This document shows, one piece after another, positions 979-36,822 of a stretch of 60,430 nucleotides of DNA; position 1 is the stretch's first letter; each line of letters begins with the position of its first letter. The stretch comes from a virus. Its lineage: Duplodnaviria > Caudoviricetes. The translations under genes and the position numbers were made by a program. The notes beneath the pieces are model-generated. The model was not told the DNA's origin. It was given only the letters and a program-made list of their open reading frames with translations, and did no database searches. Where the stretch lies: the IMG/VR virus record IMGVR_UViG_3300009151_000080, positions 1 through 60,430 of that record. One strand, given 5' to 3'.

Positions 979-1329
979 TGGAGGTGTCCGGGTACGATCC
1001 GGAGTTTTCCTAGTCATCTATAAACATTCGTTCACAAGCTTAGTAAATTTTTCTTAACTCACAAAATATATGATTTTATTTTACAATTCTAAATCATCAA
1101 AATATATTGAAACTTTTACAGAGTTCTTACTGTTGGAAACTAATTAAGCTAATGCTACGGTGTTTACCTTTACCATGTTGTTGCGTAGTGTCGCTACTAA
1201 ATCTTCACGAGAACCTACTTCGTTTGTGTTGCCGTTTAAAGCGTTAATGTAATTTATTAATCGGTTGAACATCATCCGATGCTTGAATCATACTTACCTA
1301 TGTCCTAAGAGGCAAATCAGTTCACCCCC
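979..1329 (-). ncRNA. ssrA: tmRNA (phage-encoded)
   Basis: 5' GGGGGTG pairs with 3' CACCTCC-A, giving the G3:U70 alanine identity pair; TCCGG/CCGGA T-stem; internal tag frame 1233-1144 reads GNTNEVGSREDLVATLRNNMVKVNTVALA*; 351 nt; CCA not encoded. Confidence 0.9.
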
Positions 1330-1340
1330 CATTTGTTTAA

Positions 1341-1371
1341 CAAAGATATATATAATATTTGAAATATCAAA
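1341..1371 (-). promoter_or_regulatory. Bacteroidota housekeeping-type promoter for the tmRNA (TTTG-N19-TATCTTTG)
   Basis: Both -33 and -7 boxes with canonical spacing, 12 nt before the tmRNA 5' end. Confidence 0.65.
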
Positions 1372-1376
1372 ATTGT

Positions 1377-1634
1377 TTAAACTAAATTGAAATATTTTAT
1401 TAAATCCAATGTGAAGTTCTCTTCATCACTATTATTTTCTCTTCTATTAGTAGATAAAGATACATATAACTCTTTTAATTCATCATCTGATAATTTATCT
1501 ATTTTATTAAATACCTCGAATATACCCATATCAAAAGCTTTATTGTAGTTAGAGAATAAATCTATAACATCCACTACTTCTTTTGGAATTCTACTATTTG
1601 ATTTATCTTCATTAAATCTAGTTAAATGTTTCAT
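1377..1634 (-). CDS. Hypothetical protein with MKHLTRFNE leader
   Basis: 85 aa ORF with the shared N-terminal motif. Confidence 0.7.
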   Translation of the reverse strand: MKHLTRFNEDKSNSRIPKEVVDVIDLFSNYNKAFDMGIFEVFNKIDKLSDDELKELYVSLSTNRRENNSDEENFTLDLIKYFNLV

Positions 1635-1648
1635 ATATTTTATTTTTT

Positions 1649-2161
1649 TTAAAATGGTACTTCATCATCATCATAAGTTCCTTTAACACCAGCATCATAG
1701 TAGAAGTTTACAGTGAATAAAGGTTCACGTTCTTTAGTTTCCCATAGGTCGACTTCAGCATCATATTGAATAAGAATATCAGTTTGTAACTTTTTAAGAA
1801 CACCAAGTATCTTCATTATAGATTGAAGTCTTTCCTTCTTATTCAGAACAAACTGTATTGAAATATCACTTCCGTCCCAATCAACATAGAACTCACCAAC
1901 TTTTACATTAGCAATCATATTTCTTATTGTAGATGCTAAATGTCCCATTACTTCTGATTCAGAAGCATCGTCTTCATCTTCTTCAAAATCATCATCCTCA
2001 TCATCCGATCCTATCGGACTTTGGTCTTCTTCATCATCAAAGTATTCTTCACGACTGTTATAATCTTCATCATCCTTATCTTCTTCCTTTTCCCAAGGTA
2101 AGTCATTAGGAGCTTCTTCTTTAAGAAGTTGTAAATATTTCTTTAACTTCATGTTATTCAA
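1649..2161 (-). CDS. Acidic hypothetical protein (MKLKKYLQLLKE leader variant)
   Basis: 170 aa ORF, D/E-rich N-terminal half, overlaps the upstream gene stop. Confidence 0.7.
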   Translation of the reverse strand: MNNMKLKKYLQLLKEEAPNDLPWEKEEDKDDEDYNSREEYFDDEEDQSPIGSDDEDDDFEEDEDDASESEVMGHLASTIRNMIANVKVGEFYVDWDGSDISIQFVLNKKERLQSIMKILGVLKKLQTDILIQYDAEVDLWETKEREPLFTVNFYYDAGVKGTYDDDEVPF

Positions 2162-3800
2162 GTTCTATTTTTATATGATCCTCTTCAAATGTAAAATCAG
2201 GGTCTAACTTATGCGATGTAAATAACTTTTGTAAAGCTAACATATCTTTATAGAAGTGATCCAAATCCGAATCAGTTACTTCAATATCAAATACTAATCT
2301 ACCATCAACACCTTTAATTGAATCACTATTATATAAATATAACTTCTTGTATTGACGAATAAGACCTGCATATTTTCTAGCAACTTCCTCATCAAACCCT
2401 ATTTTTCTTTTAACTGAAAGGTTAGTCCAGTCAACTTCAGCACAAGCTTTGGCTAAGTTTTCCAAATATGTAATATTTTGAACCTCATCAGGGGTGTGTT
2501 CATTAAAATATCCAACTGATACATTTGTACATTCGGGAATCAATTCTATAAAGTTAGCTGAGTCTGTAAATACACCGGTTGGATCAAGATTAAGTTTCAA
2601 CCCACTTTTATTTAACTCACTACAAAGTGACTCACCAAATTCATTAGAACAACAAGTTACACCCATTTGTTCAGTAATAACTGAGTAGTAATTTCTCCTA
2701 TCAAAGGAGATCATTTTCTTTTTTCCGTCCATGAATGGATACTTACCTATTTTTTCTGCTACCTTTCCTGAACCAATACCACCACGTTCTTCACCATTAA
2801 AGAACCAATATACACCTTCAACACCCTTAGCCATCATATACATTAATACAGCAACTCCAGATTTATCATCTGCTCCTAGGATTGTTCTTCCGTCAGTTTT
2901 AATAAAGTCCTGATCATCTTTCTTGTAAGCTATCAAACCAACTTTACTCTTTGTTCTATCTACTGTATCTAAGTGGCAAGTAAATACTGTATCTGACTCA
3001 CCGATAATAGCATAATAATTTCCAAACTCATCTCTTTCAAGACCTTCTGGTAAGTATTTAACTACTTCATCTTCATGTCCGTGTGGATATGTTTCGGTCA
3101 CTAAAGATATAAATGTTTCTCTGACGTTAGTTGGTTCGAATTCAAATCTTCTTGGTTGAATAGTTTTACCAGATTTAGGTTGTCCTGAAATACCGGATAT
3201 AAGTCTATTATATTTAACTGCGAAGTCATATATATCGTCTTGGTCAGCTTTAGGGAAAAAGCTTCTACAGAACTGGGTTACTTTTATTCTACCGGACTTA
3301 CCCTTAGATATTATATCAAAATACCATTCTTTATCTGATATATCAACCTTTTGAATTTTCATCGGGTTTTTAATATCTGGATTAGAGTCAAGTGAATAAA
3401 GATCCCAAACCATTGGATCATTTTTGATCTTATCGAGCATCATCCAGAAGTCGTCGGTAAATTTAATAAGATCTTTACCACCTTCTTCTTCGTCATCCCA
3501 TTGTTTTTCGGATTGTTTTTTACTATATCCCATGTCTTCGTCCTTTTTTTCAAGTCCCATTTCAACCCTACACGCTTTGACGAATTTTTTAATCTTATCG
3601 TCTTTTACACGGTCACCTAGGACAGCTTTTATATTCTCAAAGTTTAAACTACCACTGTCTAATAATATTCTATCTTTTTGAGGTACTGAACGAGAGAAAG
3701 ATATTTTAAGTTCCTCTATAATTTTAGAGAACTCTGGTTCTTTTCTTTCAATTTCGTCAAAAATATTTAATATACTATTTGTTAGGTATGCTGCCTTCAT
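2154..3800 (-). CDS. M28/M20-family zinc peptidase with a ~220 aa N-terminal extension
   Basis: CHLDT, GADDKSG, GEERG, SFDR, TDSA and GYFNEH metal-ligand motifs. Confidence 0.8.
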   Translation of the reverse strand: MKAAYLTNSILNIFDEIERKEPEFSKIIEELKISFSRSVPQKDRILLDSGSLNFENIKAVLGDRVKDDKIKKFVKACRVEMGLEKKDEDMGYSKKQSEKQWDDEEEGGKDLIKFTDDFWMMLDKIKNDPMVWDLYSLDSNPDIKNPMKIQKVDISDKEWYFDIISKGKSGRIKVTQFCRSFFPKADQDDIYDFAVKYNRLISGISGQPKSGKTIQPRRFEFEPTNVRETFISLVTETYPHGHEDEVVKYLPEGLERDEFGNYYAIIGESDTVFTCHLDTVDRTKSKVGLIAYKKDDQDFIKTDGRTILGADDKSGVAVLMYMMAKGVEGVYWFFNGEERGGIGSGKVAEKIGKYPFMDGKKKMISFDRRNYYSVITEQMGVTCCSNEFGESLCSELNKSGLKLNLDPTGVFTDSANFIELIPECTNVSVGYFNEHTPDEVQNITYLENLAKACAEVDWTNLSVKRKIGFDEEVARKYAGLIRQYKKLYLYNSDSIKGVDGRLVFDIEVTDSDLDHFYKDMLALQKLFTSHKLDPDFTFEEDHIKIELE

Positions 3801-3810
3801 TATCTATATA

Positions 3811-4200
3811 TTATTTTTTAGATACGGTAATTTCATAAGAGTTCTTATCATCTACTCTTACTTGACCCGGATTCATACCCTGTTCTTTCTTAACAAACTT
3901 TTTCTTACAATAAACAACTAGTACATCTTCCTTATCTGATTTAGAGTTTTTTGCAGCTATTTTTGCAGCTTGTTCTATAATCTCTTTTGTTGGAACTTTA
4001 TCTTTAACTTTTATCACAACGTGAGATCCCGGAACTCCACGAGCATGGAACCAATAATCATCATCAGTCGCTAGTTCTAATGTAACATAGTCATTAGCAA
4101 TGGCATCTTTACCTTGATAGACTACAAATCCGTCTATATCTAACTTTTTATAGTTAGGTCTATCCTTTTTCGCTTCGTTAAACTTATTTAAGTATCTCAT
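3811..4200 (-). CDS. Stand-alone NFACT-R (DUF814; RqcH/NEMF C-terminal-type) RNA-binding domain protein
   Basis: GKDA.AND.VT, DYWFHARGVPGSHVVIK, AA.IAA.NSK and KFVKK..G.NPGQV motifs; N-terminal MRYLNKFNE leader. Confidence 0.85.
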   Translation of the reverse strand: MRYLNKFNEAKKDRPNYKKLDIDGFVVYQGKDAIANDYVTLELATDDDYWFHARGVPGSHVVIKVKDKVPTKEIIEQAAKIAAKNSKSDKEDVLVVYCKKKFVKKEQGMNPGQVRVDDKNSYEITVSKK

Positions 4201-4541: not shown

Positions 4542-4605
4542 ATTTTTATATATATTAAATATAGAAGTAATAAAAACAAAAATTTGACTTCTTAGTATAA
4601 AGAAT

Positions 4606-5931
4606 ATGTCTAAACTAATGAAACTTAATGATATAAAAGACGACAATATCTTAAATGATATATTTAGTAATGAAATCGTAGTCCTTGAAGATGTTCAAGG
4701 TAGTAAAATTTATATCAACTGGAACGGAACTGATTTTACAATCAAACCAAAAACACTATCAGCAGAACCAATCAATATGATTGACCTTGCTATGCAGAAC
4801 TATTATAACACTGCAATAAATTATTTCAACTCACTTGATAATCGAGTTAAAGGTCTTATAAATAAAAAATGGTGGTTTTGTTTTGAATACTTTGTAGATA
4901 GTCAACCAGCTAACATTGAATACAACCGTGTTCCTAAAAACAACTTGGTACTTACTTCTATTTGTAAAGGTAATAAATTTGATTATACTTTTGAAGAGCT
5001 GGAAGAATATGCTAGATTATTTGACGTAGAACTTATTCCAATTATATTTAGAGGTAAGTTAAATGAAAAGATTATAGAAGCTATAAAATACTTTCTTAAT
5101 ACATCAGAAGATGATTTAGAATATGTTTTCGGTGAAAAGACATTTTCATTCTTTTTCTATAAGTTACTAAACCCACAAATACAAAACTCATTCTTAATGA
5201 ATGATGACTTTCAAAAGAATCTTGAGAAGTTAATAATAAGAGTCGATGGTAAGGACGTTTCCTTTGAGATTCTGAACCCTCTTTATAAAAGAATATCAGA
5301 TACTAACTCAACAGACTTCGTTGAAATTTACACCCTTATATTAGTCAATTTCTTAAACTTTTGTCAGTCAGTTGATTTAGATCAGATAAAGATTAAGGGA
5401 TCTAAAAGGGATGAATGTTATATTTATCTCGTAAATAAACTCTTTAATATGTATATGTCCGAAGTTAAGGAAGATCTGTTAATTTTTGACTTTACGATCC
5501 CGGAGTTTTTTGATAAAGATAAGTTTAGAGTTAATATTGAACTTATACCAAATAAGCTTACCAAACAATATATTTCCGAGGATAAGAAGTTAGAGTATAT
5601 CTATAAAATAATACTTGGATCTTTTAATAAGGAAAGGAAAAAAGCTATTGGTGTTTTTAATGACGCTACTATTAGAATATTTAATCACTTTGTTAGATCT
5701 CTACAACTGAAGATAGATGAGTTTTTCAATAAAAAATCAGAAATAGAGCTCACCCGATCAAATTTGATGGATTTTGGGGATTTCTTTGACATTAAAAGTT
5801 ATGATGTGGATGGGGATAACCAAGTTTATCCAGACATCTACAAAGAAATGGAAAAAGGTTCTGACGATAAAAAGAAGAAAGATTTAGGTGGTAAGGAAGA
5901 TCTAGGAAAGGGATTTGACATGGGTAAGTAA
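4606..5931 (+). CDS. RNA ligase (Rnl2-like) nucleotidyltransferase-fold protein, apparently catalytically degenerate
   Basis: VVLEDVQGSKI at the motif I (EKxDG) position, then FCFEY, IPIIFRG, LEKLIIR and FEILNP in ligase motif order. Confidence 0.5.
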   Translation: MSKLMKLNDIKDDNILNDIFSNEIVVLEDVQGSKIYINWNGTDFTIKPKTLSAEPINMIDLAMQNYYNTAINYFNSLDNRVKGLINKKWWFCFEYFVDSQPANIEYNRVPKNNLVLTSICKGNKFDYTFEELEEYARLFDVELIPIIFRGKLNEKIIEAIKYFLNTSEDDLEYVFGEKTFSFFFYKLLNPQIQNSFLMNDDFQKNLEKLIIRVDGKDVSFEILNPLYKRISDTNSTDFVEIYTLILVNFLNFCQSVDLDQIKIKGSKRDECYIYLVNKLFNMYMSEVKEDLLIFDFTIPEFFDKDKFRVNIELIPNKLTKQYISEDKKLEYIYKIILGSFNKERKKAIGVFNDATIRIFNHFVRSLQLKIDEFFNKKSEIELTRSNLMDFGDFFDIKSYDVDGDNQVYPDIYKEMEKGSDDKKKKDLGGKEDLGKGFDMGK

Positions 5932-6807
5932 AAAATCCGATTCCCACATCGAGACCAAATTATATCCAGATTCTATAATCTTATTTTCACGTTCAATGGT
6001 TTTATTATATAACTCTCCAAATTTTAGCCCAGTTGATTTATTTAGATCATCTGGGTTATATTTTTTTGGGTTACCATGCCAATAATCACCATTAAATTCA
6101 TAGATGGTGTTTGAATCGGGATCATATCCATCTACAAGATATAGGTTATTATCTATGTATATCTTATGTTGTCTAAGCTTTACTCCAAGTGAATCCAACC
6201 AAACTAGCTCATGTTTTGATATTCTTTTACCACATTTTGGACAACCTTGTCCATTTAGATGGTGATTTGGGGTTTTGTGGAACTCACCATGTTTATCACA
6301 TATTATTTTAACCATGGTTCTGGCATTGATATATTCAACATCATCATATTTATATAGATTTTTATATAGTGTATTTGCCTTTTCTATAAATGTATCTTTA
6401 TCACTTTTTTGTATATTATGTACATTACACACTATACAACCCCCCTTTCCTCTAATATGAACCCCTGGTAGTTGCCAAAAATATCCGTGTTGGTTACATT
6501 TTATTTTTATTTTAGTGGTGATGTTGATGTATTCCGATTCGGAGTAGTCATACTTTCCATTATGTTTTTTATTGGCATTTATTATAAACTCCTCCCTTGT
6601 GTATCTTTTTTTATCCTGTCCGCATTTATAACATCCACCATTATTAAAATGGGAATTTGGTTTTTGCTCAAACATCCCATGTTTATTACATATAATTTTA
6701 ACCTTAGTATAACTATTAATATACTCTACCATAGAGTAATCATATTTATCACCATGTATTTCCTTACAATCTAAAATAAATTCTTCTTTAGTTTTTCTCC
6801 TTATCAT
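5902..6807 (-). CDS. Putative homing endonuclease with three Zn-binding repeats and a C-terminal PD-(D/E)xK/Vsr-like nuclease
   Basis: 3x FI..A...H..KYDY..VEY....VKIIC..HG.F...P..H..G.GC..C, then VDGYD...IYEFNGDYWHG...MWESDF. Confidence 0.75.
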   Translation of the reverse strand: MIRRKTKEEFILDCKEIHGDKYDYSMVEYINSYTKVKIICNKHGMFEQKPNSHFNNGGCYKCGQDKKRYTREEFIINANKKHNGKYDYSESEYINITTKIKIKCNQHGYFWQLPGVHIRGKGGCIVCNVHNIQKSDKDTFIEKANTLYKNLYKYDDVEYINARTMVKIICDKHGEFHKTPNHHLNGQGCPKCGKRISKHELVWLDSLGVKLRQHKIYIDNNLYLVDGYDPDSNTIYEFNGDYWHGNPKKYNPDDLNKSTGLKFGELYNKTIERENKIIESGYNLVSMWESDFLLTHVKSLS

Positions 6808-6880: not shown

Positions 6881-6881
6881 T

Positions 6882-7115
6882 ATGAAGAAAAAAACAACTA
6901 GGACTTTTAGTATCTCTGATGATATATGGGAGAAGTTTATGGAAGTCACAAGTAGGAATCAAATAAACCGTTCAAGGCTAATAGAGGATTATATTGAGAA
7001 GTATATAGAATCTAATGAAGAGGTTGATAGTATAGATTTGGTATTAGATAAAATTTCAAAATTTGGAATCAACTCTTTAAGTAAAGGTGAAAAAAGGTTA
7101 TTGGAGGATCAATAA
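6882..7115 (+). CDS. Ribbon-helix-helix-like small protein with DUF6576-like C-terminus
   Basis: RTFSISDDIWEKF...NRSRLIEDYIEKYI (RHH pattern) plus IDLVLDKISKFGINSLSKGEK. Confidence 0.6.
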   Translation: MKKKTTRTFSISDDIWEKFMEVTSRNQINRSRLIEDYIEKYIESNEEVDSIDLVLDKISKFGINSLSKGEKRLLEDQ

Positions 7116-11596: not shown

Positions 11597-12676
11597 ATGA
11601 GGATAAGAAGAAAGTTTCTACAACTTACGAGACAGACCGTTCCATACGGTAACGAAATAAAACTTCGCCAGTATTTACCTAAAGGGTATAAGAATGACGA
11701 ACACGGTAATTTTTATATAACGGTTGGTGAAAACTTCACCACTATGTTTACATGCCATCTCGATACTGCTTGTTCGTATGACCGAATTGTTAAACACAAG
11801 CAAACAGAACAGTATATCTACACCGATGGTACTACCATTTTGGGGGCGGATGATAAAGCGGGTATGGTTGTTCTATTATACATGATTGAGAAACAAGTTC
11901 CTGGTCTATACTATTTCTTCATAGGTGAGGAAGTTGGTTGTGTCGGTTCGTCTCTTTTAGCTGATAAGTTCAACTGGCCAGATATAACAAAGGTAGTTTC
12001 ATTTGACCGTAGAGGTACTACATCAGTTATTACTGAGCAGTTCTATGGTAGGTGTTGCTCGGATGAGTTTGCACAAGCACTAGCAGACTCACTAAACTCG
12101 ACTGATTCTACATTGAAACTAGCTCCGGATAATACTGGTATATTAACTGACTCTGCTCAGTTTATAGAAATAGTTCCTGAGTGTACCAACATATCAGTTG
12201 GTTATTATGATGAACACACAACCAGAGAAACACAGGATATAGACTATCTTGTTAAGTTGTGCAGAGCTGTTGTAACCATTGATTGGGAGGATCTCCCTAT
12301 CGTAAGAGACCCAGAATTTGATTATGACTACGACGCTCCGGGTTGGGATGATGAACTTGGTCTTGATGATGACGCATCTGACTATGATGAAGAATTATCA
12401 ACCAACATAGTTGTTGATGGTAAAACAAAGAAGATGTTTATATCCAAAACTTGGATCGACAATGAAAAGTCTATGATCAAAGAAGTGTTGAAGAACACTG
12501 GATATAACGCTGAATGTGTTGTTTGGGATGGTAATACTTGTTGGTGTAATGAGAATGGTGATTGGGTGTATATAGGTAATCGAGACGAACTTACTGCCTT
12601 TGCTGACATTAGGTACATACCATATGAACATTTAAGGGAAACAATACCTGTTGATAAAACTAAACTTGTTTATTAA
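11597..12676 (+). CDS. M28/M20-family zinc peptidase (paralog of 2154..3800)
   Basis: CHLDT, GADDKAG, GEEVG, SFDRRG, TDSA, GYYDEH; preceded by TACCTTTG at 11563-11570. Confidence 0.8.
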   Translation: MRIRRKFLQLTRQTVPYGNEIKLRQYLPKGYKNDEHGNFYITVGENFTTMFTCHLDTACSYDRIVKHKQTEQYIYTDGTTILGADDKAGMVVLLYMIEKQVPGLYYFFIGEEVGCVGSSLLADKFNWPDITKVVSFDRRGTTSVITEQFYGRCCSDEFAQALADSLNSTDSTLKLAPDNTGILTDSAQFIEIVPECTNISVGYYDEHTTRETQDIDYLVKLCRAVVTIDWEDLPIVRDPEFDYDYDAPGWDDELGLDDDASDYDEELSTNIVVDGKTKKMFISKTWIDNEKSMIKEVLKNTGYNAECVVWDGNTCWCNENGDWVYIGNRDELTAFADIRYIPYEHLRETIPVDKTKLVY

Positions 12677-13254
12677 TGAAAACTAAAGCTATAGTATTTG
12701 ATTTGTATAATACTCTATTATACTGTTCTGTTAGGAAGAAACCTTATATGGAACTGTTTAAGAATCTTGGTTTAACAAAGGAAGAAATGAGTTTCTGGCG
12801 TGATAAAGTTATGACAGAAAACTATTCTTCTTTTGAAGAACTGAAACTAGCAATCAGACCAAATTCCTTGGTTTATACACAGAATCTTGACTATGTAGTC
12901 AAAGAGGAAAATGAACATACTCATGTATTTGACGACACATATCAGGTGTTAGAATCACTTTATAGAAAGTATGATTTGTATTTGTTATCAAATATTGCTA
13001 CTCCATATAAAGAATGTTTTTATAATCTGGACTTGGATAAGTATTTTAAGAGAGTTTTCTTTTCTTGTGATATTGGGTATAGGAAACCCCAACCAGAAGC
13101 TTTTGAAATGATTGTAAACCATTCGGGATTACAACCTCAACAACTACTAATGGTTGGGGATAGTCAACATTCTGACTATGAAGGTGCGTTAAATTCCGGT
13201 TTAAAAGCTTTACTTAAAGACAAACCTTTAAGTTTGTTATTAACCGATCTTTAA
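12676..13254 (+). CDS. HAD-family hydrolase
   Basis: FDLYNTL, LLSN, RKP and MVGDS..SD..GA motifs. Confidence 0.8.
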   Translation: MKTKAIVFDLYNTLLYCSVRKKPYMELFKNLGLTKEEMSFWRDKVMTENYSSFEELKLAIRPNSLVYTQNLDYVVKEENEHTHVFDDTYQVLESLYRKYDLYLLSNIATPYKECFYNLDLDKYFKRVFFSCDIGYRKPQPEAFEMIVNHSGLQPQQLLMVGDSQHSDYEGALNSGLKALLKDKPLSLLLTDL

Positions 13255-13533: not shown

Positions 13534-14055
13534 ATGGTAATCAAGATAAAAGGTATATTGGACTTTACTCCAGAGGATGTGACTAGAAAGCACAAGTCTC
13601 AGTCTTCTTGGAAAAGAGTTGCTGTTATTAAAATGGACGGTGACTTGGATCGTTACTATGCTTGGTTCTTGAAGAAAAGATTTAATTTAGAGTTAAATAA
13701 AAACCTTCGTGGTGCTCACGTTACTTTTATTTCAGATAGACTGGAAAAAAATATATTTGATGAAGCTTCAAAACTATTCAATGGTAAGGAGATTACTTTC
13801 TACCTTGAATTAGAACCAAGGTCTAATGGTCAACACTGGTGGTTAAGAGTTCACTCACCAGAGGCTGAGTCTATTCGTGAGGCAATGGGACTTACAAGAG
13901 AACCTTACTTCGGATTACACCTAACACTAGGATTAGCAAATGAAAGAAACTTAGAACACTCTAAGTACATATTAGAAACCTGTAAAAGATTTGAGATAAT
14001 CTCAAACGAACCAAGAAAACCTATTAGTGAACATGAAATAAAAGAGTTCAAGTAA
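13534..14055 (+). CDS. 2H phosphoesterase superfamily protein
   Basis: Two HxT motifs (GAHVTFI, GLHLTLG) ~67 aa apart; TACCTTTG promoter at 13522-13529. Confidence 0.6.
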   Translation: MVIKIKGILDFTPEDVTRKHKSQSSWKRVAVIKMDGDLDRYYAWFLKKRFNLELNKNLRGAHVTFISDRLEKNIFDEASKLFNGKEITFYLELEPRSNGQHWWLRVHSPEAESIREAMGLTREPYFGLHLTLGLANERNLEHSKYILETCKRFEIISNEPRKPISEHEIKEFK

Positions 14056-15070: not shown

Positions 15071-15919
15071 ATGAAATATTATGTTTATACTTTGAGTTAT
15101 GATGGTAAAATTTTCTATGTCGGCAAAGGAACTGGTCTCAGAATGTTTATACATGAAAAAAGAACACGAAAAGGAATCAAGTCGAACAATAATACATCTC
15201 TATTTGAAAAAATACATTCAATAATTGAATATGGGAATAGTATAGAATATACTAAAATTTTTGAAACCAATAATGAGTGTGAGGCTTATAAATTTGAATT
15301 TGAAACTATTGAAAATATTGGATTGAATAATTTGTGTAACCTGACAAAAGATTACTTGAAGACATCCGTTTCCGATATGGTAAAAGCCGCTTTAGCTAAA
15401 TCCGAAAAATGGAATGAATCTAAAATAAAGAAAAAAAGTTTAGAGGTAAGGGAATATTATAGACAAATCAATATTGGTGATAAGAATCCTAGATACGGAA
15501 AGAAAAATACGGAAGAACATATGAATGCTATCAAAAATTCTCTGATTGGAATTCCAAAATCCGAAGAGCATAAAAAAAAGATTAGTGATGCTATCAGAGG
15601 AATAATAAGAAGTGATGAATTTAAGCGGAAAGTTTCCGATTCACTTAGAAACTCATCTAAACTGAAAGAAGTGACTCAATCGGAAGAATTTAAGAACAAA
15701 CATAGGGAAAACTCTAAAAAGAGACATAAAGAATCAATTACTTACTATTATGAATATAATGGTAATATTATTATTCATAAGGGTGGATTGAAAGATATGG
15801 CTAGTCAGTATGATATATCTTTTTACTACTTGAAAAAACTAAGATATGGGAAAATTGAGGAGTATAAGGGATGGAGGTTTATTTCTATCGAAAATAAATC
15901 TTTTAAAACCAAAAACTAA
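15071..15919 (+). CDS. GIY-YIG homing endonuclease with NUMOD3 repeats
   Basis: YYVY..FYVGKG...R N-terminus; GDKNPRYGKKNTEEH and KSEEHKKKIS repeats. Confidence 0.8.
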   Translation: MKYYVYTLSYDGKIFYVGKGTGLRMFIHEKRTRKGIKSNNNTSLFEKIHSIIEYGNSIEYTKIFETNNECEAYKFEFETIENIGLNNLCNLTKDYLKTSVSDMVKAALAKSEKWNESKIKKKSLEVREYYRQINIGDKNPRYGKKNTEEHMNAIKNSLIGIPKSEEHKKKISDAIRGIIRSDEFKRKVSDSLRNSSKLKEVTQSEEFKNKHRENSKKRHKESITYYYEYNGNIIIHKGGLKDMASQYDISFYYLKKLRYGKIEEYKGWRFISIENKSFKTKN

Positions 15920-19259: not shown

Positions 19260-21416
19260 TTAAAGATTTTTGAATCTTTCCATAATAGAAGTCATTTCCT
19301 TATCAGAGAGTTTATCTTCTTGAATAAGAGCTTCATGAGCAACTAATTTCTTAGAAACTGATTCGTTTTTCTTGAGACTTCTTGTTAACCAGAAATGTTC
19401 AACTTTTGATTCTGTTGTAAGATCTGAGTACAATCTAGCTTGTGATAAGATAGACTTCTTTGAAGACTCATTTAATTGTTTCCAGATTGGCTTAATGTTT
19501 TCAGGCATCAATCTGATTAGTCTTTCTTCAAGACCTTCGTTTTTAGTTGATAACGCTTCGTTGATAAGTTTTAAAACTTCAGAACTTGTAAAGTAGCTTC
19601 TTTCGTTTATGTAAAGTTTTACTTGTTCTTGCTCTTCGTTAGTTAAGCTGTAATAGCTATCTACTTGAGACTTGTTTAAGAACTTTAAGAAGTGTAGATC
19701 ATTTGTTTCAGAAACCTTACGTTTTTTAGCTTCTGCAATAAGTTTATCTATTTGTTTTGATAATTCGGTATCAGAGTTACCTTCGAATTCCTGAGTCATT
19801 TCTTCCTCTTCGTGGCCCATACCCTCTTCTTCTTCATGAGGCATCATTTCTTCTTCTTCTTCGTGTGGCATAGTTTCTTCTTCTTCATGTCCCATCATTT
19901 CGTGTGGCATCATTCCTTCTTCTTCTTCATGACCCATCATTTCGTGTGGCATCATTTCTTCTTCATGACCCATCATTTCTTCTTCAGAAGCTTCTTCAAA
20001 ACCGAACTCTTCAAGTGTTGGTAATAACTTACCTTTACCCTTGTTTTCATTTAATTTAGTACCGTTAAGTTTTTCAGAAATCATACCTGCGTAAGAAACT
20101 GTTTTGTCAAGATTTTCTGCGATATATTCAGAATAAGCAATATTGTCATCTAAGTGTTCAGCAATGTATTCAGAGTAAGCGATGTTACCTTCAACATGTT
20201 CTGCTAAGTATTCAGAATAAGCAATAGAGTTATCCAAATGTTCTGCTAAGTACTCACCATAAGAAATGTTCTTATCTAAGTTTTCAGCGATATACTCAGA
20301 ATAAGCAATGTTCTTATCTAAGTTTTCAGCTAAGTATTCAGAATAAGAGATGTTCTTATCTAAGTTTTCAGCTAAGTACTCAGAATAAGTAATATTCTTA
20401 TCCAAGTTTTCAGCTAAGTACTCAGAATAAGTAATATTCTTATCCAAGTTTTCAGCGATATACTCAGAGTAAGTGATGTTCTTATCTAGGTTTTCAGCTA
20501 AGTACTCACCGTAGTTGATAGCTTTTTCAAGGTTTTCAGCTAGGTAGTCATTGTGAGAAATAAGTTTATCAGCAGTAGTTCTTAATGATTTGTTCTCATT
20601 AACTACAATCTGAACCTTATCAGCTAAGTAGTCTAAGTACTTAACGATCTGTGTGTTAGTCTTGTTGAGGTCTTCATAATACTCAAGAAGTTGTTCTAAC
20701 TTTTTCGGATTGATGTTACCTGTTTTTAAAGCAGATTTAACATCCTTCTTAGTTGTTGCAATCTCTTTAATGAGATATTTAGAATAGTCAGTTAACTGCT
20801 GCTTGGTAACGAATTCATTCTTGTTCATGTTGAATAGTTCGTTTATTTTTGACTCGTCGGACATTTCATATATCCTATAGTTAGTTTCCTTTGTAATTGG
20901 GCGACCAAGAGACTCATTGATAGAGTGCATTCTAGCAGAAGCAAAACCAGGATCAGCAACTATGTCATATGTAAACAATTTCTTTAGAGTTACTGTACCA
21001 TCATTTTCTGTGATACCAGCCGCTCTAGAAGAAACGAATACAGGACATCCGTCATCGACTAATGTTCTTGCCTCTTTACCCCAATATGTATTAAGCAATT
21101 TGATCTGCCCGTCAACACGATTAGACTCCTTGATAAAAGAAGCCTTCTTGATAATGTGTGATGCACGTGATAATGAAGTATCAAATACATCTGGGTGATC
21201 GAATTCGCCATAAACAACTCCAAAATCAGATATACGTTGGTTCAATTCTTCTAAGCATGGTAAAAACTTATCTGCAGTATATATTCTTTCGTTACGGTTT
21301 TTTACACCGAACTCAGTAAATACACCACCCAATAAGTATTCCTTCTTAGAACCTGATCCAACAATATTCTCCACGAGTGGTTTAGTGTTGTTTTCTACGA
21401 TTAAAATTGGTTTCAT
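19260..21416 (-). CDS. Prohead protease (T4 gp21-like) fused to a scaffold/core region
   Basis: KNRNERIY, GEFDHP, VSSRAAG, DIVADPGF catalytic motifs, followed by coiled and repeat region. Confidence 0.88.
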   Translation of the reverse strand: MKPILIVENNTKPLVENIVGSGSKKEYLLGGVFTEFGVKNRNERIYTADKFLPCLEELNQRISDFGVVYGEFDHPDVFDTSLSRASHIIKKASFIKESNRVDGQIKLLNTYWGKEARTLVDDGCPVFVSSRAAGITENDGTVTLKKLFTYDIVADPGFASARMHSINESLGRPITKETNYRIYEMSDESKINELFNMNKNEFVTKQQLTDYSKYLIKEIATTKKDVKSALKTGNINPKKLEQLLEYYEDLNKTNTQIVKYLDYLADKVQIVVNENKSLRTTADKLISHNDYLAENLEKAINYGEYLAENLDKNITYSEYIAENLDKNITYSEYLAENLDKNITYSEYLAENLDKNISYSEYLAENLDKNIAYSEYIAENLDKNISYGEYLAEHLDNSIAYSEYLAEHVEGNIAYSEYIAEHLDDNIAYSEYIAENLDKTVSYAGMISEKLNGTKLNENKGKGKLLPTLEEFGFEEASEEEMMGHEEEMMPHEMMGHEEEEGMMPHEMMGHEEEETMPHEEEEEMMPHEEEEGMGHEEEEMTQEFEGNSDTELSKQIDKLIAEAKKRKVSETNDLHFLKFLNKSQVDSYYSLTNEEQEQVKLYINERSYFTSSEVLKLINEALSTKNEGLEERLIRLMPENIKPIWKQLNESSKKSILSQARLYSDLTTESKVEHFWLTRSLKKNESVSKKLVAHEALIQEDKLSDKEMTSIMERFKNL
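20088..20549 (-). repeat. 11 tandem 42-bp (14 aa) coding repeats EY[LI]AENLDKNI[STA]YS
   Basis: Counted in the translation and visible in the DNA. Confidence 0.9.
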
Positions 21417-21530: not shown

Positions 21531-21953
21531 GTGATGACTTTAGAATTGGAAATAGTATCAAATGACTTAAACATAAGAAAGGCGGTGGTTTCATTCACAC
21601 AGAGAAGGTGTATCACATCATATAGAGACATCGCTCTTGATTTCCTAATAGATGAAAATAATACTTCACTTGAAAAGATATTGGTAGAGTCATCTCCAGA
21701 TAATCCTATAATTGGATGTACATATCAATCATCATTTAGAAATCAAGTCTCATTAAAAGATGTGTCTCACGTAATACAATCAATAAGAATAAGTGAAAAT
21801 AATATATACGCTATGGTTAAAATACTAGATACACCATCTGGAAGAATGTTGAAGGAGTTAACATCAGATCAAATGGTACTTAAACCAGTATATCAAAGTG
21901 ATGGACTTATTTCAACATTTGATATAGACTTTATAAATAATCAAGCAGCATGA
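21531..21953 (+). CDS. gp21 prohead-protease-like domain lacking catalytic His/Ser
   Basis: VSLKDVSHVIQSI...VKILDTPSGRMLKEL matches the gp21 core; no GE.DHP or SSR motifs. Confidence 0.5.
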   Translation: MMTLELEIVSNDLNIRKAVVSFTQRRCITSYRDIALDFLIDENNTSLEKILVESSPDNPIIGCTYQSSFRNQVSLKDVSHVIQSIRISENNIYAMVKILDTPSGRMLKELTSDQMVLKPVYQSDGLISTFDIDFINNQAA

Positions 21954-22369
21954 TACTTACTAGGGAAATAATAGTTAAAATAAATGAATCCAACTTCTCA
22001 TATTATGAGGAGCTTGGATATGATGTTGCAATTGGTGAAGCATTGATAATACCAATAGAACTATTATCAGCTGGTAGTAGGTATAAGATTGATTGTAAAT
22101 GTGATAAATGTGGAATTGTAAAGGAAGTTATATTTAGAAACTATGTTAAATATGATAATAGATGGGGAGAGTACTTCTGTAGAAAATGTTCTGAATATAA
22201 AAGAAAGAAAACTTTAATAGAAAACTATGGAGTTGAATATCCCATTCAGAATAAAGAAATAAAGAAAAGAATAAAAGAAACAATGATTGAAAAGTTTGGA
22301 GTTGATAACCCAACCAAGTCAAAGGAGATAATAGAAAGAAGAGAAATAAATAAAAAAAGTCCCAAATGA
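21950..22369 (+). CDS. Zn-ribbon / homing-endonuclease-associated protein (no nuclease domain seen)
   Basis: IPIELL..GS..KI...CDKC...CRKC and ENYGVEYP/EKFGVDNP repeats, like the N-terminus of 32664..33590. Confidence 0.55.
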   Translation: MILTREIIVKINESNFSYYEELGYDVAIGEALIIPIELLSAGSRYKIDCKCDKCGIVKEVIFRNYVKYDNRWGEYFCRKCSEYKRKKTLIENYGVEYPIQNKEIKKRIKETMIEKFGVDNPTKSKEIIERREINKKSPK

Positions 22370-24922: not shown

Positions 24923-25429
24923 ATGTTAAACAGCGCACCAAAACAACCAGGTAAGTATAAACAAGGACTTTATATACCAAAGAATAAGGATAAGGTGATA
25001 AAACTAAATAGTCAGGGTGGATTATTTTACAGGTCCGGACTCGAACAGAAAATGATGGTTTATTTTGACAATAATGAGAATATAATCAATTGGGGGGCAG
25101 AACATCTTAGAATACCATACACAAAGACTGAATGGGTAAGTGAGTCTCAAGAATTTAAGACAACCGAACATACCTATTACCCAGACTTTTATTATGAGTT
25201 AAAAAGATCAAATGGAACGATATCAAAGGTAATAGCTGAAGTTAAGCCTAAGTCAGAGACAATGGAACCAAAGATACCAGCAACTCCAACATCAAAACAA
25301 CTGAAAAACTTTGAGTATGCTCTTAAAATGTATAATAAGAACCTAAGTAAGTGGACTTACATGATTGAGTATTGTGAAAAGAAAGGATTTGAGTTTATTA
25401 TTATTACGGAAGAGCTTTTAGGAAGATAA
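24923..25429 (+). CDS. Head completion nuclease (T4 gp4 / TnsA N-terminal-like)
   Basis: YKQG.Y.PKN..K, YRS.LE, WGAE..IPY, YYPDF, EVKP. Confidence 0.8.
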   Translation: MLNSAPKQPGKYKQGLYIPKNKDKVIKLNSQGGLFYRSGLEQKMMVYFDNNENIINWGAEHLRIPYTKTEWVSESQEFKTTEHTYYPDFYYELKRSNGTISKVIAEVKPKSETMEPKIPATPTSKQLKNFEYALKMYNKNLSKWTYMIEYCEKKGFEFIIITEELLGR

Positions 25430-31969: not shown

Positions 31970-32002
31970 AATGAGTATATATTAATTTTAATATATAACT
32001 TT

Positions 32003-32663: not shown

Positions 32664-33590
32664 ATGATTATATCAAATACAGTAATGGTAAAAGTAAATA
32701 CAAAAAATATCAAATCACTAAAAGAACACGGATATAACAACTTAAAAATTAAAAATGAAATAGAAATAAAAGTTGAGCACCTATCAAAAGGATCACACTA
32801 CCTAATAGATGTTTGTTGCGATGTTTGCCAAAAACAAAGAAGTATAATGTATAAAGAATATCTATATAATTTAAAGAGTGGTGGGTATTATTCTTGTCAA
32901 GGAATTTGTAGCACTGGAAAAAATAAAAAAACTTGTTTAGAGAAATATGGTGTAGATAATCCAACAAAATCAGTAGAAATTTTAGAAAAAAGACATCTCA
33001 ATAATATATTAAAATATGGTTATGAATATAATACACTATTCAACGAAAAATTAAAACTATCAATAATGGATAAATATGGTGTAGATAATCTATCTAAATC
33101 AGAAGAAGTTAGAGAAAAAAGAAAGAAAACAATGATAGAAAGATATAACGTTGAGTATTATGTTTTATCAAAAGAATTTAAAAATAAGAGCGAAAAGAGT
33201 TGTATAAAAAACTATGGTAAATCACACCCAATGAAAATAAAAGAGGAAGTTAAAAAAAGATTGAATAAAATGGGATTAGACTTTGAAACTAACGATTTCA
33301 TAATTTATAGAAGATTGGTAGATAAATTCACAAAATATAATAGAAATAAATTATTAGAAAATTGGAACGGAAATGATGCATATGATGGGGAATACATTAA
33401 AGAAAACTTCAATTTAAAGGGACAACATGGGGATTATCCAACTATTGACCACATCAAATCTGTTAAAGAATGTTTTAATGAAGGATTACTACCAATATAT
33501 GTAGCAGATATTAATAATCTATGTATAACGAAAAGAAGAATAAATTCAAAAAAAGGATTTAAAAATAACATTGAGTCGCTGAGTAAGTAA
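32664..33590 (+). CDS. Putative HNH homing endonuclease with Zn ribbon and KYGVDN repeats
   Basis: CCDVC, EKYGVDNP repeats, C-terminal TIDHIKS...NL...RINSKK. Confidence 0.65.
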   Translation: MIISNTVMVKVNTKNIKSLKEHGYNNLKIKNEIEIKVEHLSKGSHYLIDVCCDVCQKQRSIMYKEYLYNLKSGGYYSCQGICSTGKNKKTCLEKYGVDNPTKSVEILEKRHLNNILKYGYEYNTLFNEKLKLSIMDKYGVDNLSKSEEVREKRKKTMIERYNVEYYVLSKEFKNKSEKSCIKNYGKSHPMKIKEEVKKRLNKMGLDFETNDFIIYRRLVDKFTKYNRNKLLENWNGNDAYDGEYIKENFNLKGQHGDYPTIDHIKSVKECFNEGLLPIYVADINNLCITKRRINSKKGFKNNIESLSK

Positions 33591-34173: not shown

Positions 34174-34198
34174 TATAGTATATATTAAATAATTGCAT

Positions 34199-34232
34199 AA
34201 AAAAACATCAATCTTAAAGATTGATGTTTTTT
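34199..34232. terminator. Intrinsic terminator
   Basis: aaaacatcaatct/agattgatgtttt. Confidence 0.75.
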
Positions 34233-34247
34233 TATTTTAATATCTTA

Positions 34248-34868
34248 TTAAGAAGGTAATTCTTCTTCATTTTCTTCCTCTTCCTCTTCTTCTGGATTTA
34301 CTTCTTCATATCCCTGACCTTGTGCCTGAGCTTGTCCCTGAGGAGCTGCTTGACCTTGAGCTTGTCCCTGTCCTTGTGGTTGAGTCTCAGCTTGAACTTG
34401 TGGTTGAGCTTGTCCCTGAGGAGCCATTTGACCCTGAGCTTGTGGAGCTGGTTGAGCTTGTCCTTGAGGAGCCATTTGACCTTCTGGAGCCATTTGACCT
34501 TCTGGAGCCATTTGTGTTTGTGCTTGTCCTTGAGGAGCCATTTGAGCTGGAGCTTGTTGAGCACCTGATTGACCCTGTCCTTGAGCACCACCAACAAGAG
34601 CGTTAGCCGGCATCTTATCAGCGTCTAATCCGTTCTGAACCACCCATTTAATGATTTCTTCAGCTAAGTCCATATCACCAAAGAACTGTCTCAAATTCTT
34701 ACCAACGTTGTCCTTAACTTTTTTAACGTAAGCGTTTAGTAAAGATTGTGGAACATCTGCCATAATTCTTACTTTGTAGATATCATTAACTTGAAGTACA
34801 GACTCTTTAATAATGTCGTCTCTTCTTCTTTTAACTCTATAGCTTTCAAACATTCTGATGTGTTTCAT
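34248..34868 (-). CDS. Hypothetical protein with MKHIRMFE leader and Q/A/P/G repeat tail
   Basis: QMAP[QE]GQ repeats and acidic end. Confidence 0.7.
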   Translation of the reverse strand: MKHIRMFESYRVKRRRDDIIKESVLQVNDIYKVRIMADVPQSLLNAYVKKVKDNVGKNLRQFFGDMDLAEEIIKWVVQNGLDADKMPANALVGGAQGQGQSGAQQAPAQMAPQGQAQTQMAPEGQMAPEGQMAPQGQAQPAPQAQGQMAPQGQAQPQVQAETQPQGQGQAQGQAAPQGQAQAQGQGYEEVNPEEEEEEENEEELPS

Positions 34869-34935
34869 CTTGAAATTGTATTTTTTTATTGTTTTATAAG
34901 AGTATATATTATAAATAAAAACTCATTTTTTATCA

Positions 34936-35499
34936 TTAATGATGAACCAACACATGAAGTATGAAGAGACCAAACCCAAGTATTGTACCGGTTATACCAC
35001 CATACTTCCACTTATTCAATTTTGATATCATATTCTCATCATTTTTAATGATTTCATCCTTTAATTTTAACTGAGCTTCCGCTTTTTTAAGATCGGCTTG
35101 ATAATTAAGTATTTGTTGATTAAGGTTATCTATCATTTTCTTTTGACCATCCCTTACCTCTTCAAGCTTTTTAGCTTTTATTTCCAACATAGCAACTTTT
35201 CTCTCATACTTATTAACAACTATAATATAGTGTTTGATAGTAGAGTCACAACTTATCTTCATGTCTTCTAATAACTCTAGAAGTTCTTCATCATTATCTA
35301 ATTTTTGAGCCTGTTCAATTGTTAGTATTATACCCACAGTATCTCCATTGACAACATAATAACTTGGAAGGGAGTTTATTATACTGTCTTTTATAGAAAC
35401 TATCTCATGTTTAGTAGTATCTTTAACTAAAGTGTCTGTTTGTGAATAAGCACCAAAACTTAAAAGTGTAGCGAGTATTAATGTAAATATTTTTTTCAT
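34936..35499 (-). CDS. Signal peptide + coiled coil + C-terminal TM protein (possible lysis/spanin-like)
   Basis: MKKIFTLILATLLSFGAYS|Q; heptad region; hydrophobic C-terminus. Confidence 0.55.
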   Translation of the reverse strand: MKKIFTLILATLLSFGAYSQTDTLVKDTTKHEIVSIKDSIINSLPSYYVVNGDTVGIILTIEQAQKLDNDEELLELLEDMKISCDSTIKHYIIVVNKYERKVAMLEIKAKKLEEVRDGQKKMIDNLNQQILNYQADLKKAEAQLKLKDEIIKNDENMISKLNKWKYGGITGTILGFGLFILHVLVHH

Positions 35500-35500
35500 A

Positions 35501-35914
35501 TTATTTCTTTGTTTTTTCTTTCAGAGAATTTAATAACTGATCCCCAGTTCTCTTGATAGGTTCTTCTTTTAATTTATGTATTTTATATTCAATAGAATCA
35601 AATTGTGACTTATAGTGATTAACCTTTACCACAGCATCATGTAACTCGTGATTAACCTTTACTAGTTTATGATTTATTTGACTTAACTCATGTTCTTTTT
35701 TATCAACATTTAGTTTAAGTGTATCATACTTACCTTCAAGTTTTAGTCTGTCTTCTTTAAGACTATCTCTCTGAACTTGTATAGCTGTTACAGAATCTTT
35801 TAACATTCTATTCTTTTCTCGTAATTCTTTCATACTTTTACCACCAAAAAAGGTCATAAGTAGAAAACCAACTAATAAAGACCCGATAATAATCAAGTTT
35901 GTCTTGTTTTTCAT
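35501..35914 (-). CDS. N-terminal TM + coiled-coil protein (i-spanin-like architecture)
   Basis: One TM followed by a long coiled coil, directly upstream of the previous gene. Confidence 0.5.
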   Translation of the reverse strand: MKNKTNLIIIGSLLVGFLLMTFFGGKSMKELREKNRMLKDSVTAIQVQRDSLKEDRLKLEGKYDTLKLNVDKKEHELSQINHKLVKVNHELHDAVVKVNHYKSQFDSIEYKIHKLKEEPIKRTGDQLLNSLKEKTKK

Positions 35915-36003
35915 TTATTTTACATATATTTTTTTATAAGAAAAACTTTCCTTATATTTGCTATATATATTTTCTACATAACTCCCAAAATAAATATTTA
36001 AAA

Positions 36004-36510
36004 ATGATTACAAAACTTGTATGTTTCGATTTTGACGGAACCCTTATCCATACACCAACACCCGAAACTGGTCGTCCAGAGTGGGAGAAGAAAACAGGAT
36101 TATCTTGGCAGGGTAGAGGTTGGTGGGGAAACCCAGAATCTCTTAACCTAAAGATTTTCTACCCTCCAGTAAACCAGTGGGTTTATAGTAAGTATCTACA
36201 GGCTAAGTCTGATCCAGAAGCTTATGTTTTTTTGGCAACTGGTCGTTTATCTAAACTTGCTCATCATGTACAAAGGGTACTTGACTTACACGAGATTGAG
36301 ATGGATGATGTTTTCTGCAACACCGGTGGAGATACCTTGAAATTCAAGTGTTATCTTTTTGAGCAGATAATCAAGAAGCATCCAAAAGCTACAGAATTCA
36401 CTATGTATGATGACCGACAGGAACATATGGATGAGTTCGTTAGTTGGGCTAAAAGACAACCAATAAAAGTCAACATCATCGATGTTGTGAACAAAAAGCA
36501 AATTTTTTAA
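36004..36510 (+). CDS. HAD phosphatase, Swiss-Army-Knife RNA-repair-like (HAD_SAK_1)
   Basis: FDFDGTL..TP, GWW, LATGR, YDDR..H; TATATTTG box at 35953-35960. Confidence 0.7.
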   Translation: MITKLVCFDFDGTLIHTPTPETGRPEWEKKTGLSWQGRGWWGNPESLNLKIFYPPVNQWVYSKYLQAKSDPEAYVFLATGRLSKLAHHVQRVLDLHEIEMDDVFCNTGGDTLKFKCYLFEQIIKKHPKATEFTMYDDRQEHMDEFVSWAKRQPIKVNIIDVVNKKQIF

Positions 36511-36540
36511 TAAATATATACAACAAAATAATAAAAGAAT

Positions 36541-36822
36541 ATGTCAACAATTACAAGAGAACAGGTAAGTACAGACTTGGAAGAAATACTCAGTTTACCT
36601 TACATTCTTATTCTACACAATGATGACCATAATACTTTTGACCACGTAATTGAAAGCCTTATAAAGTATTGTGGACATGAACTAGAACAAGCAACTCAAT
36701 GTGCTCACATCGTACACTTCACTGGTAAGTGCGATGTTAAGCGCGGTGATAAAGAAGTTGTAATGAAAAGCTACAACAAACTCAAAGGAGTTGGACTTTC
36801 CGTAACTATTGAAGAGGCTTAA
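36541..36822 (+). CDS. clpS: ATP-dependent Clp protease adaptor ClpS
   Basis: LILHNDDHNTFDHVI..L...C.H..EQA.QCA.IVH..GKC.VK.G. Confidence 0.85.
   Translation: MSTITREQVSTDLEEILSLPYILILHNDDHNTFDHVIESLIKYCGHELEQATQCAHIVHFTGKCDVKRGDKEVVMKSYNKLKGVGLSVTIEEA

Follow-up and report, generated by a model that had tools for sequence, protein, structure and literature searches.

A tmRNA homologue with a remodelled T loop and a stand-alone NFACT-R protein share a conserved gene cluster in huge phages, possibly for ribosome rescue

We describe a small gene cluster in a viral DNA of 60,430 bases, IMG/VR virus record IMGVR_UViG_3300009151_000080, which was analysed as a whole record (estimated completeness 11%) and is called the window below. 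The cluster lies on the minus strand and reads, in order, a stand-alone NFACT-R protein, a clan MH metallopeptidase, an acidic protein, an extra open reading frame (ORF) of 85 residues, a transfer-messenger RNA (tmRNA) and a terminator. Judged by gene order in relatives, the NFACT-R gene, this one peptidase, the acidic protein and the tmRNA are a conserved, co-oriented cluster. Our preferred reading, to which we give a probability of about 0.5, is that the phage itself runs ribosome rescue from here: the tmRNA would act with an SmpB encoded in another part of the genome, the NFACT-R protein would dock on the 50S subunit and might also hydrolyse peptidyl-tRNA, and the peptidase possibly clears the products. 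An earlier note on this DNA had proposed a wider set for hijacking ribosome rescue and proteolysis, made up of the tmRNA, the NFACT-R protein, ClpS and two M28 peptidases. That proposal is partly supported: the tmRNA, NFACT-R and one peptidase do form a cluster; ClpS and the second peptidase are separate from it in distance and in neighbourhood, and ClpS also in its distribution among relatives.

The window has a GC content of about 30% and encodes T4-type structural genes recognised with Pfam, namely the Gp23 capsid protein, the Gp20 portal, the large terminase (TerL), an S77-type prohead protease domain and the sheath. Its TerL is 63.8% identical to that of LR756502.1 (642 kb), 64.2% identical to that of LR745206.1 (635 kb) and about 42% identical to those of LR756504 and LR756501. 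All four are huge phages described by Al-Shayeb et al. 2020 (PMC7162821), where the predicted host of the closest named relatives is given as Bacteroidetes. On sequence grounds, the window is a fragment, about 11%, of a huge phage. Loci and records of relatives are labelled here L002, L003, L032, L074, L124, L125, L131, L133 and G001-G003, and the outgroups are LR756504, LR756501, PAU and pT24.

The tmRNA gene takes up 351 nt (979-1329, minus strand). It had been placed there in the earlier note, and the assignment stands on direct reading with scripted placement, on 22 other distinct homologues and on covariation. In the acceptor stem, 1329-1323 pairs with 986-980 at all seven positions, with a G3.U pair and a discriminator A at 979. 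The T arm (1003-987) is a perfect 5-bp stem closed by a 7-nt loop, ATCGTAC. The tag reading frame (1144-1233, minus strand) has 29 codons, GNTNEVGSREDLVATLRNNMVKVNTVALA, from the resume codon GGC (1233-1231) to the stop TAA (1146-1144), and the tag ends in ALA, that is, in small hydrophobic residues. UAA is found at -5 to -3 relative to the frame, and an in-frame GAA four codons downstream of GGC is an alternative resume codon. An intrinsic terminator (948-974, minus strand), with a 12-bp stem and then a T run, follows 5 nt past the gene's 3' end; comparable hairpins lie 3' of the gene in relatives. A box of the TA-n-n-TTTG type (1341-1350, minus strand), which resembles the Bacteroidota -7 promoter element, stands 12 nt upstream of the tmRNA, and the relatives' genes have similar boxes in front of them. 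Patterns like this box are not enriched in the window (9 found, 9.1 expected), and sigma-70-type sites there are not above shuffles (24 versus 23.7).

The tmRNA genes of the window, LR756502 and LR745206 are missed by the standard finders. ARAGORN returns 0 genes from the window and Rfam 0 matches at gathering score; none of the 12 weak Rfam matches within 700-1700 is a tmRNA, and a search of the window record with RF00023 gives a single match of 6.4 bits, at another place. ARAGORN finds no tmRNA in the LR756502 and LR745206 loci, and the RF00023 cut-off is reached nowhere in either genome; blastn gives partial matches to the window tmRNA at syntenic places in both. Al-Shayeb et al. (PMC7162821) assigned tmRNAs with ARAGORN and reported them in general terms for huge phages. 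Surveys that use ARAGORN or Rfam undercount the tmRNA genes of an entire clade among the largest phages known, published genomes of 635-642 kb included. Our literature searches found no printed description of a tmRNA variant of this type or of a phage stand-alone NFACT-R protein, the supplementary tables of Al-Shayeb et al. lying outside this check.

Homologues of the gene can be collected by way of a conserved 15-base box, which is present at at least 118 loci in IMG/VR. At least 25 of the box loci, two GenBank loci and the window carry the tmRNA gene, giving at least 28 copies and 23 distinct sequences, which were aligned with MAFFT (415 columns). The acceptor stem is paired at seven of seven positions, with G3.U, in all 23, and its fifth pair changes in step (G:C in 5 sequences, A:T in 15, G.T in 3). 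The T stems vary in sequence and keep their pairing, with at least eight different covarying stem sequences. The layout from RNAalifold is tmRNA-like: besides the acceptor and the T arm it shows a long P2 helix, a PK1-type stem without variation, one hairpin within the tag region and a 3' hairpin. Compensatory change on both sides is seen in 26 of the 46 consensus pairs, compared with 13.4 +/- 1.8 in shuffles, and 95.3% of cells are paired, compared with 30-45% when the partners are slid; none of 500 shuffles reaches the observed value for compensatory change, with the proviso that the consensus structure was derived from the alignment on which it was tested and is biased in its favour. In P2 (helices 2, 3 and 5), 13 of 19 pairs have compensatory change. 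The window forms 39 of the 46 consensus pairs, and four of its seven missed pairs are MAFFT slips in stems that are perfectly paired on direct reading.

The T loop differs from one sub-lineage to another, and TTCGACT, TTCGTCA, ATCGTAC, AGTCGGAG and GGCAGTA are all found across the clade. Most sequences (19 of 23) have a 6-bp T stem with a GGCAGTA-type loop; TTCGACT is found in L032 only, two closer relatives of the window carry TTCGTCA and AGTCGGAG, and ARAGORN is blind to both. The comparison of loops takes in L124 8630-8982 and L125 10768-11129 together with the family loci. L032 has both an ARAGORN call and an RF00023 score of 59.3 bits (cut-off 47), and L074 has a sub-threshold RF00023 match (24.2 bits, E 3.6e-6); the remaining nine of the 11 family sources searched have no ARAGORN or RF00023 match. 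Since L032 passes as a canonical tmRNA, it ties the variant family to canonical tmRNA. Taken as sequence comparison, this shows that the window RNA is truly homologous to tmRNA and that its T loop has been remodelled. Like the one-piece tmRNA SsrA (RF00023), which works with SmpB, it has a G3.U acceptor, a discriminator A, a long P2, a PK1-type stem, an internal tag frame that ends in small hydrophobic residues and its own terminator, and complete relatives have SmpB. Unlike SsrA, it has a T loop that is not of the TΨC type, a shortened region after the acceptor and a long tag (about 29 codons) conserved along its length. The varied T loops, found alongside phage SmpB genes, amount to a natural experiment on how much change the tRNA-like domain of tmRNA tolerates.

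The tag frame is kept in all 23 sequences. Synonymous differences make up 203 of 852 differing codon pairs in frame, whereas shifting the frame gives 62 of 798 and 84 of 813; the count was made on the 12 of 23 sequences that have a 29-codon tag under the rule of the script. In three relatives, 12, 14 or 15 nt separate the conserved box from the frame, and these differences in length mark the stretch upstream of the tag frame as non-coding, with no translation through it. At the level of codon comparison, selection on the tag frame is shown to act on the peptide. An intact frame with an excess of synonymous change, the covarying helices and the co-occurrence of phage SmpB genes with the tmRNA all speak against the idea that the gene is a decoy or a decaying copy, one that binds SmpB or ribosomes and so inhibits host trans-translation, or has no function. 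What such a decoy would explain is the non-canonical T loop, variable across the clade, and the shorter window copy, which is missing about 30 nt found in most relatives; there is also a precedent in the CDS-less tmRNA-like RNA reported for phage DS6A (PMC11915505). We consider it very improbable.

SmpB is encoded by four of five large relatives (LR756502, LR745206, G001 and G002, not G003) and by two of the four outgroups (LR756504 and LR756501, not PAU or pT24), and in relatives it is always accompanied by a tmRNA or tmRNA-like gene. Two outgroup loci deserve a remark of their own. LR756504 has a canonical tmRNA (L131; LR756504.1 280507-280863) with an RF00023 score of 65.2 bits, and ARAGORN reports two tRNAs at L131, one of them called with a 4-base anticodon, and no tmRNA despite that score. 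In the 735-kb phage LR756501, a full-length RF00023 match stays below threshold at 21.1 bits (L133 1501-1844, minus strand; LR756501.1 718388-718731); this locus has the conserved box region of the family, and a normal acceptor stem was not found in it by eye.

The earlier note had suggested looking for co-occurrence of its genes among related phages. NFACT-R is found in 25 of 27 tmRNA-bearing records, always on the same strand as the tmRNA and, in the eight records for which the distance was worked out, 1.9-3.8 kb upstream of it. The two records without it are a 14-kb contig that ends short of the expected place and G002, which has a canonical tmRNA. In 19 of 20 records, the gene next after NFACT-R is the cluster peptidase. 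L002 and L003 agree in having the major capsid gene followed by NFACT-R, the peptidase, the acidic protein, the tmRNA, the terminator and a NADAR-type gene; L124 has the same cluster and, like the window, a divergent gene for a 441-residue protein upstream. G002 has its tmRNA in the same post-capsid region beside NADAR, without the three cluster proteins. Co-occurrence thus holds for NFACT-R, the peptidase and the tmRNA; ClpS and the second peptidase occur in other neighbourhoods.

Linkage of this kind may also come about without any shared function, tmRNA and SmpB, NFACT-R, the peptidases, ClpS and the RNA-repair-type enzymes being separate accessory genes of one huge-phage clade whose adjacency is no more than an inherited order downstream of the capsid gene. 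The linked records are all relatives with the same gene order, the cluster in L002 and L003 simply comes after the major capsid gene, the peptidase family is scattered at one to five copies per genome, ClpS is retained in relatives that lack NFACT-R and lost in one that has SmpB, and an extra ORF has been inserted into the window's cluster. What argues for a functional connection is the distribution of NFACT-R, which is absent from all five relatives outside the variant-T-loop clade (G002, LR756504, LR756501, PAU and pT24) and so frequent among tmRNA-bearing records, together with the arrangement of the cluster: its genes are co-oriented and tightly packed, and their strand shows no terminator-like site ahead of the one that follows the tmRNA. 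On balance, we regard mere inheritance of gene order as unlikely, if by no means negligible.

The NFACT-R gene (3811-4200, minus strand) encodes 129 residues with a Pfam NFACT-R_1 match (PF05670) of 56.4 bits (cut-off 29.8) and no other domain, in agreement with what had been read from the sequence at first. In a sequence search of the PDB, the closest solved relatives are Bacillus subtilis RqcH (residues 456-558, E 1.9e-16), Streptococcus suis FBPS and, ranked sixth, CCDC25 (E 7e-5). The AlphaFold model has a pLDDT of 89.5 and a pTM of 0.82, with residues 1-3 and 5-12 below 50. All 15 Foldseek matches at E <= 0.001 are NFACT-R proteins, and the TM values are 0.77 for RqcH, 0.72-0.74 for CCDC25, 0.72 for Rqc2 and 0.64 for NEMF, so that the comparison of predicted structure with RqcH proposed in the earlier note ends in a match. 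Neither Pfam nor the model reveals NFACT-N, HhH or coiled-coil-M domains in the 129-residue protein, which is not a full RqcH or NEMF. A search confined to short proteins, with longer forms outside it, gives 263 clusters of 70-226 residues that match the phage NFACT-R at E <= 1e-5; among the matches listed (120 of 263), identity is 59-96%. An alignment of the window protein with 26 picked from the 120 listed shows no variation at D48, W50, H52, G58, S59 and H60 (27 of 27 sequences).

Two known systems are instructive here. The NFACT-R domain of RqcH makes contact with the A-site finger, and binding to the 50S subunit is lost when the DWH motif is mutated (10.1101/2020.09.03.281279). Yeast Jlp2, itself a solo NFACT-R protein, is reported in a preprint to release peptide from peptidyl-tRNA on the 60S subunit and to require H44, the counterpart of which in CCDC25 is H41; the preprint asks whether other histidine-bearing NFACT-R domains also act as release factors (10.1101/2025.09.04.673968). 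In the portion of Burroughs and Aravind 2014 available to us, solo NFACT-R is listed for eukaryotes only. The phage protein resembles RqcH of B. subtilis (PDB 7AQC, 7AS8, 8S1U) in sequence, in predicted structure and in the D-W-H motif, and differs from it in being the NFACT-R domain only; without NFACT-N, HhH and coiled coil, it can neither recruit tRNA-Ala nor make Ala tails. Like Jlp2 and CCDC25 (PDB 7EOE; 10.1101/2025.09.04.673968), it stands alone and has the W-x-H histidine; unlike them, it has no C-terminal coiled coil, and its release activity is putative. Because it is nearer in sequence to bacterial RqcH than to CCDC25, the phage protein probably arose separately, from bacterial RqcH. 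The invariant histidine of the D-W-H motif, at the position reported as catalytic in Jlp2, suggests that the phage NFACT-R may release stuck chains from tRNA. Being small, abundant and easily expressed, with its invariant histidine, the solo NFACT-R makes the release-factor question of the Jlp2 preprint testable in a bacterial setting.

The same protein could instead be a blocker rather than an enzyme, occupying the A-site finger of free 50S subunits and thereby excluding RqcH-type tailing in hosts that possess it, or keeping the subunits for the phage. This would suit the invariance of the D-W-H motif with which RqcH docks on the 50S subunit, and the lack of NFACT-N, HhH and coiled coil, which tailing requires. 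The nearest relatives, however, have Bacteroidetes as their predicted host phylum, and a Bacteroides thetaiotaomicron control genome has no NFACT-R gene (and no ClpS), so such a host might offer no RqcH for a blocker to act on; moreover, every aligned phage protein keeps the histidine that Jlp2 uses for catalysis. We find the blocker improbable. The predicted hosts and the NFACT-R-less control genome likewise make it more likely that NFACT-R adds an activity than that it hijacks RqcH. They bear in the same way on the claim that the phage touches both bacterial routes for tagging stalled chains: a phage tmRNA and the SmpB of relatives support one route, and the RqcH route is doubtful.

In our preferred reading of a phage-run rescue cluster, phage trans-translation would act where broken or cleaved mRNA has stalled host ribosomes, and a phage-specific tag of about 30 residues, the last of them small and hydrophobic, would be added to the stalled chains. 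NFACT-R would dock through its D-W-H motif on the A-site finger of the 50S subunit, as in RqcH, and, in the manner of Jlp2, its invariant histidine would hydrolyse peptidyl-tRNA left on split large subunits, which would open another way out for stalled chains in a host without RqcH. Trimming of released or tagged peptides would fall to the neighbouring peptidase, and this is the weakest step. If this reading holds, the cluster suggests that giant phages bring ribosome rescue with them as a resource.

Several observations weigh against this reading. The T loop of the window tmRNA is not of the TΨC type and the gene scores below the Rfam gathering cut-off and escapes ARAGORN, so its charging with alanine and its use of SmpB and EF-Tu are putative. 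Pfam finds no SmpB in the window, which holds only about 11% of the genome. The equivalence of H52, in its W-x-H motif, to Jlp2 H44 and CCDC25 H41 is one of motif and not of residue-level alignment. A histidine also occupies this position in B. subtilis RqcH, which is not known as a hydrolase. No observation connects the peptidase with the tag, and for the acidic protein Pfam, PHROG and NCBIfam give no family and the Atlas no TM above 0.51, which is below naming level. Gene order is conserved in the single clade to which all NFACT-R-bearing records belong, so the linkage may be inherited, and the contrast with relatives that lack NFACT-R rests on a few genomes, G002 and LR756504 with canonical tmRNAs and LR756501 with a tmRNA-like gene. 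Finally, the contigs of one marine metatranscriptome have nothing on the tmRNA and, beyond one contig, only scraps of 19-45 nt; this sample, which contained 6% of the sampled words, is uninformative on tmRNA expression, and its one contig of 231 nt (1864-2094) falls on the gene for the acidic protein.

A bolder form of the rescue idea is a private, orthogonal pathway for disposing of nascent chains, in which the tmRNA with its remodelled T loop would be served by the phage SmpB rather than, or better than, by that of the host, its tag of about 30 residues would be a conserved, phage-specific degron read by phage proteases (either the clan MH peptidases or ClpP together with the phage Clp ATPase) and not by host tag readers, and NFACT-R would be a release factor of the Jlp2 type. 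We hold this to be a long shot; if true, NFACT-R would be the first histidine-dependent peptidyl-tRNA release factor of the Jlp2 type outside eukaryotes.

The peptidase of the cluster (2154-3800, minus strand; 548 residues) matches PHROG 4191 at 1e-69 and carries a PepT-like signature; no Pfam family matches it at E <= 0.01. Its catalytic core spans approximately residues 226-470 and is preceded by an N-terminal extension of 225 residues without a recognised fold. The second peptidase (11597-12676, plus strand; 359 residues) matches Pfam M28 (PF04389; 2.5e-5, 24.6 bits against 21.3) and PHROG 4191 (8e-73). The two are paralogues, 48% identical over 248 residues, and share motifs, read by eye, around the presumed metal ligands. 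Both have partial matches of the PepT type, with scores well short of the equivalog cut-offs (34 versus 274 bits). Like peptidase T (M20B) and M28 of clan MH, they have these motifs, and one paralogue passes Pfam M28; unlike peptidase T, they have no detected PepT lid domain, and their N- or C-terminal extensions differ. For both, 'clan MH, M28/PepT-like' is the safer name by sequence. The description of two M28 peptidases was right in that both are present and paralogous, and too specific for the cluster member, only 11597-12676 passing the M28 model. The distances given at first, among them 3.3 kb for the stretch with tmRNA, NFACT-R and peptidase, are as stated. In related records the family has one to five scattered paralogues, with none in G002.

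The acidic protein (1649-2161, minus strand; about 167-170 residues, with a likely ATG at 2152) is part of the cluster in relatives too; its C-terminal domain is conserved, and its first half is very rich in Asp and Glu. Its orthologues lie at L002 4309-4827, L003 4340-4849 and L124 8046-8561, and in these and the window the end is always an acidic run and then Pro-Phe, which resembles the C-terminal tip of bacterial SSB. The 85-residue ORF (1377-1634, minus strand) has a leader-like N terminus and no family, and is extra in the window; it is absent at this place in L002, L003 and L124. The divergent 441-residue protein (4606-5931, plus strand) has no Pfam, PHROG or NCBIfam match, and its Atlas feature matches of 0.93-0.95 to clusters with PF09414 RNA_ligase make it a possible RNA ligase, as a lead only.

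NFACT-R had also been said to carry a putative capsid leader, and the N-terminal motif itself is there. M-[KR]-[HYFK]-[LI]-x-x-[FY]-x-[ES] heads 8 of the 74 window ORFs (starts at 1634, 4200, 27239, 29598, 31969, 34173, 34868 and 58110) and has 0 internal occurrences in 18,761 residues. In NFACT-R, the N-terminal 12 residues are disordered in the model, and orthologues retain the leader, M1 in every case and E9 and K11 in nearly all. The motif fits a linear signal; capsid targeting and action after injection are putative. Looser versions are seen at further ORFs, for example at 2152, 7471, 45637-46281 and 46353.

The ClpS homologue (36541-36822, plus strand; 93 residues; Pfam PF02617, 1.3e-16, 60.6 bits, cut-off 23) keeps the residues aligned to N34, D35, D36 and H66 of Escherichia coli ClpS, with Phe in place of M40. 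Directly upstream is a HAD_SAK_1-type phosphatase (35899-36510, plus strand; Pfam 1.5e-10, 41.7 bits, cut-off 25.6), so the pairing of ClpS with an RNA-repair-type HAD phosphatase described earlier is confirmed, both being above the Pfam cut-off. The order HAD_SAK_1, ClpS, TerL is common to the window, LR756502 and LR745206; in G002 and LR756504 there is no HAD_SAK_1 gene beside ClpS within the 2.8-3.1 kb examined. ClpS is found, adjoining TerL, in 15 of 20 related records and also in LR756504, so that it is present in two relatives without NFACT-R (G002 and LR756504); it was not found in LR756501, which has SmpB, or in PAU and pT24. ClpS lies 32 kb and the second peptidase 7 kb from the cluster, each in another conserved neighbourhood.

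Small ClpS proteins with the N-degron pocket residues kept, and relatives with ClpP, agree with what Iyer et al. 2021 (PMC7824862) noted earlier for ClpS and ClpP of jumbo phages. Unlike in that set, ClpS is here always beside TerL, with HAD_SAK_1 as well in the near clade, and the ClpA/C-like ATPase of the relatives has no detectable Clp_N. Of five relatives, all have ClpP and four a 707-residue two-ring AAA+ protein; no Clp_N domain is found in any of the five records, nor by Pfam in the AAA+ protein, and the window encodes no Clp_N-bearing ClpA/ClpC partner. As the Clp ATPase of the relatives lacks this domain, ClpS probably acts on the N domain of host ClpA/ClpC.

A possible RNA-repair set is scattered over the window, comprising the 441-residue RNA-ligase-like protein (4606-5931, plus strand; the Atlas lead), a HAD hydrolase and a 2H-SAK phosphoesterase (24.6 bits, below its cut-off of 27) among 12676-13254 and 13534-14055, and HAD_SAK_1 (35899-36510). 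ClpS, the HAD phosphatase, the second peptidase and the RNA-repair-type genes are separate genes of the clade, which may serve the same general end, translation and proteostasis in a long infection or under RNA-cleaving defences.

Just past the tmRNA terminator is a gene for a microbial-type PARG (macrodomain; 141-908, minus strand). In LR756502, LR745206 and G002 the neighbour of the tmRNA is a NADAR-type gene, not PARG. ADP-ribose marks are removed by both PARG-type and NADAR-type proteins.

Genes of the homing-endonuclease type (HNH, GIY-YIG, DUF7487 and TnsA-like) are scattered among the core genes of the window, at 5902-6807 (minus strand) and, on the plus strand, at 15071-15919, 21950-22369, 24923-25429 and 32664-33590; one such gene separates the cluster from the remainder of the window. 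A 718-residue protein (19260-21416, minus strand) has a weak S77 prohead protease match (E 6e-4, 19.8 bits against a cut-off of 27) confined to its first 140 residues or so, the remainder being acidic and repeat-like. A DUF6576 motif closes two otherwise unrelated small proteins (6882-7115 and 45215-45640, both plus strand), with E values of 7e-8 and 1.5e-8.

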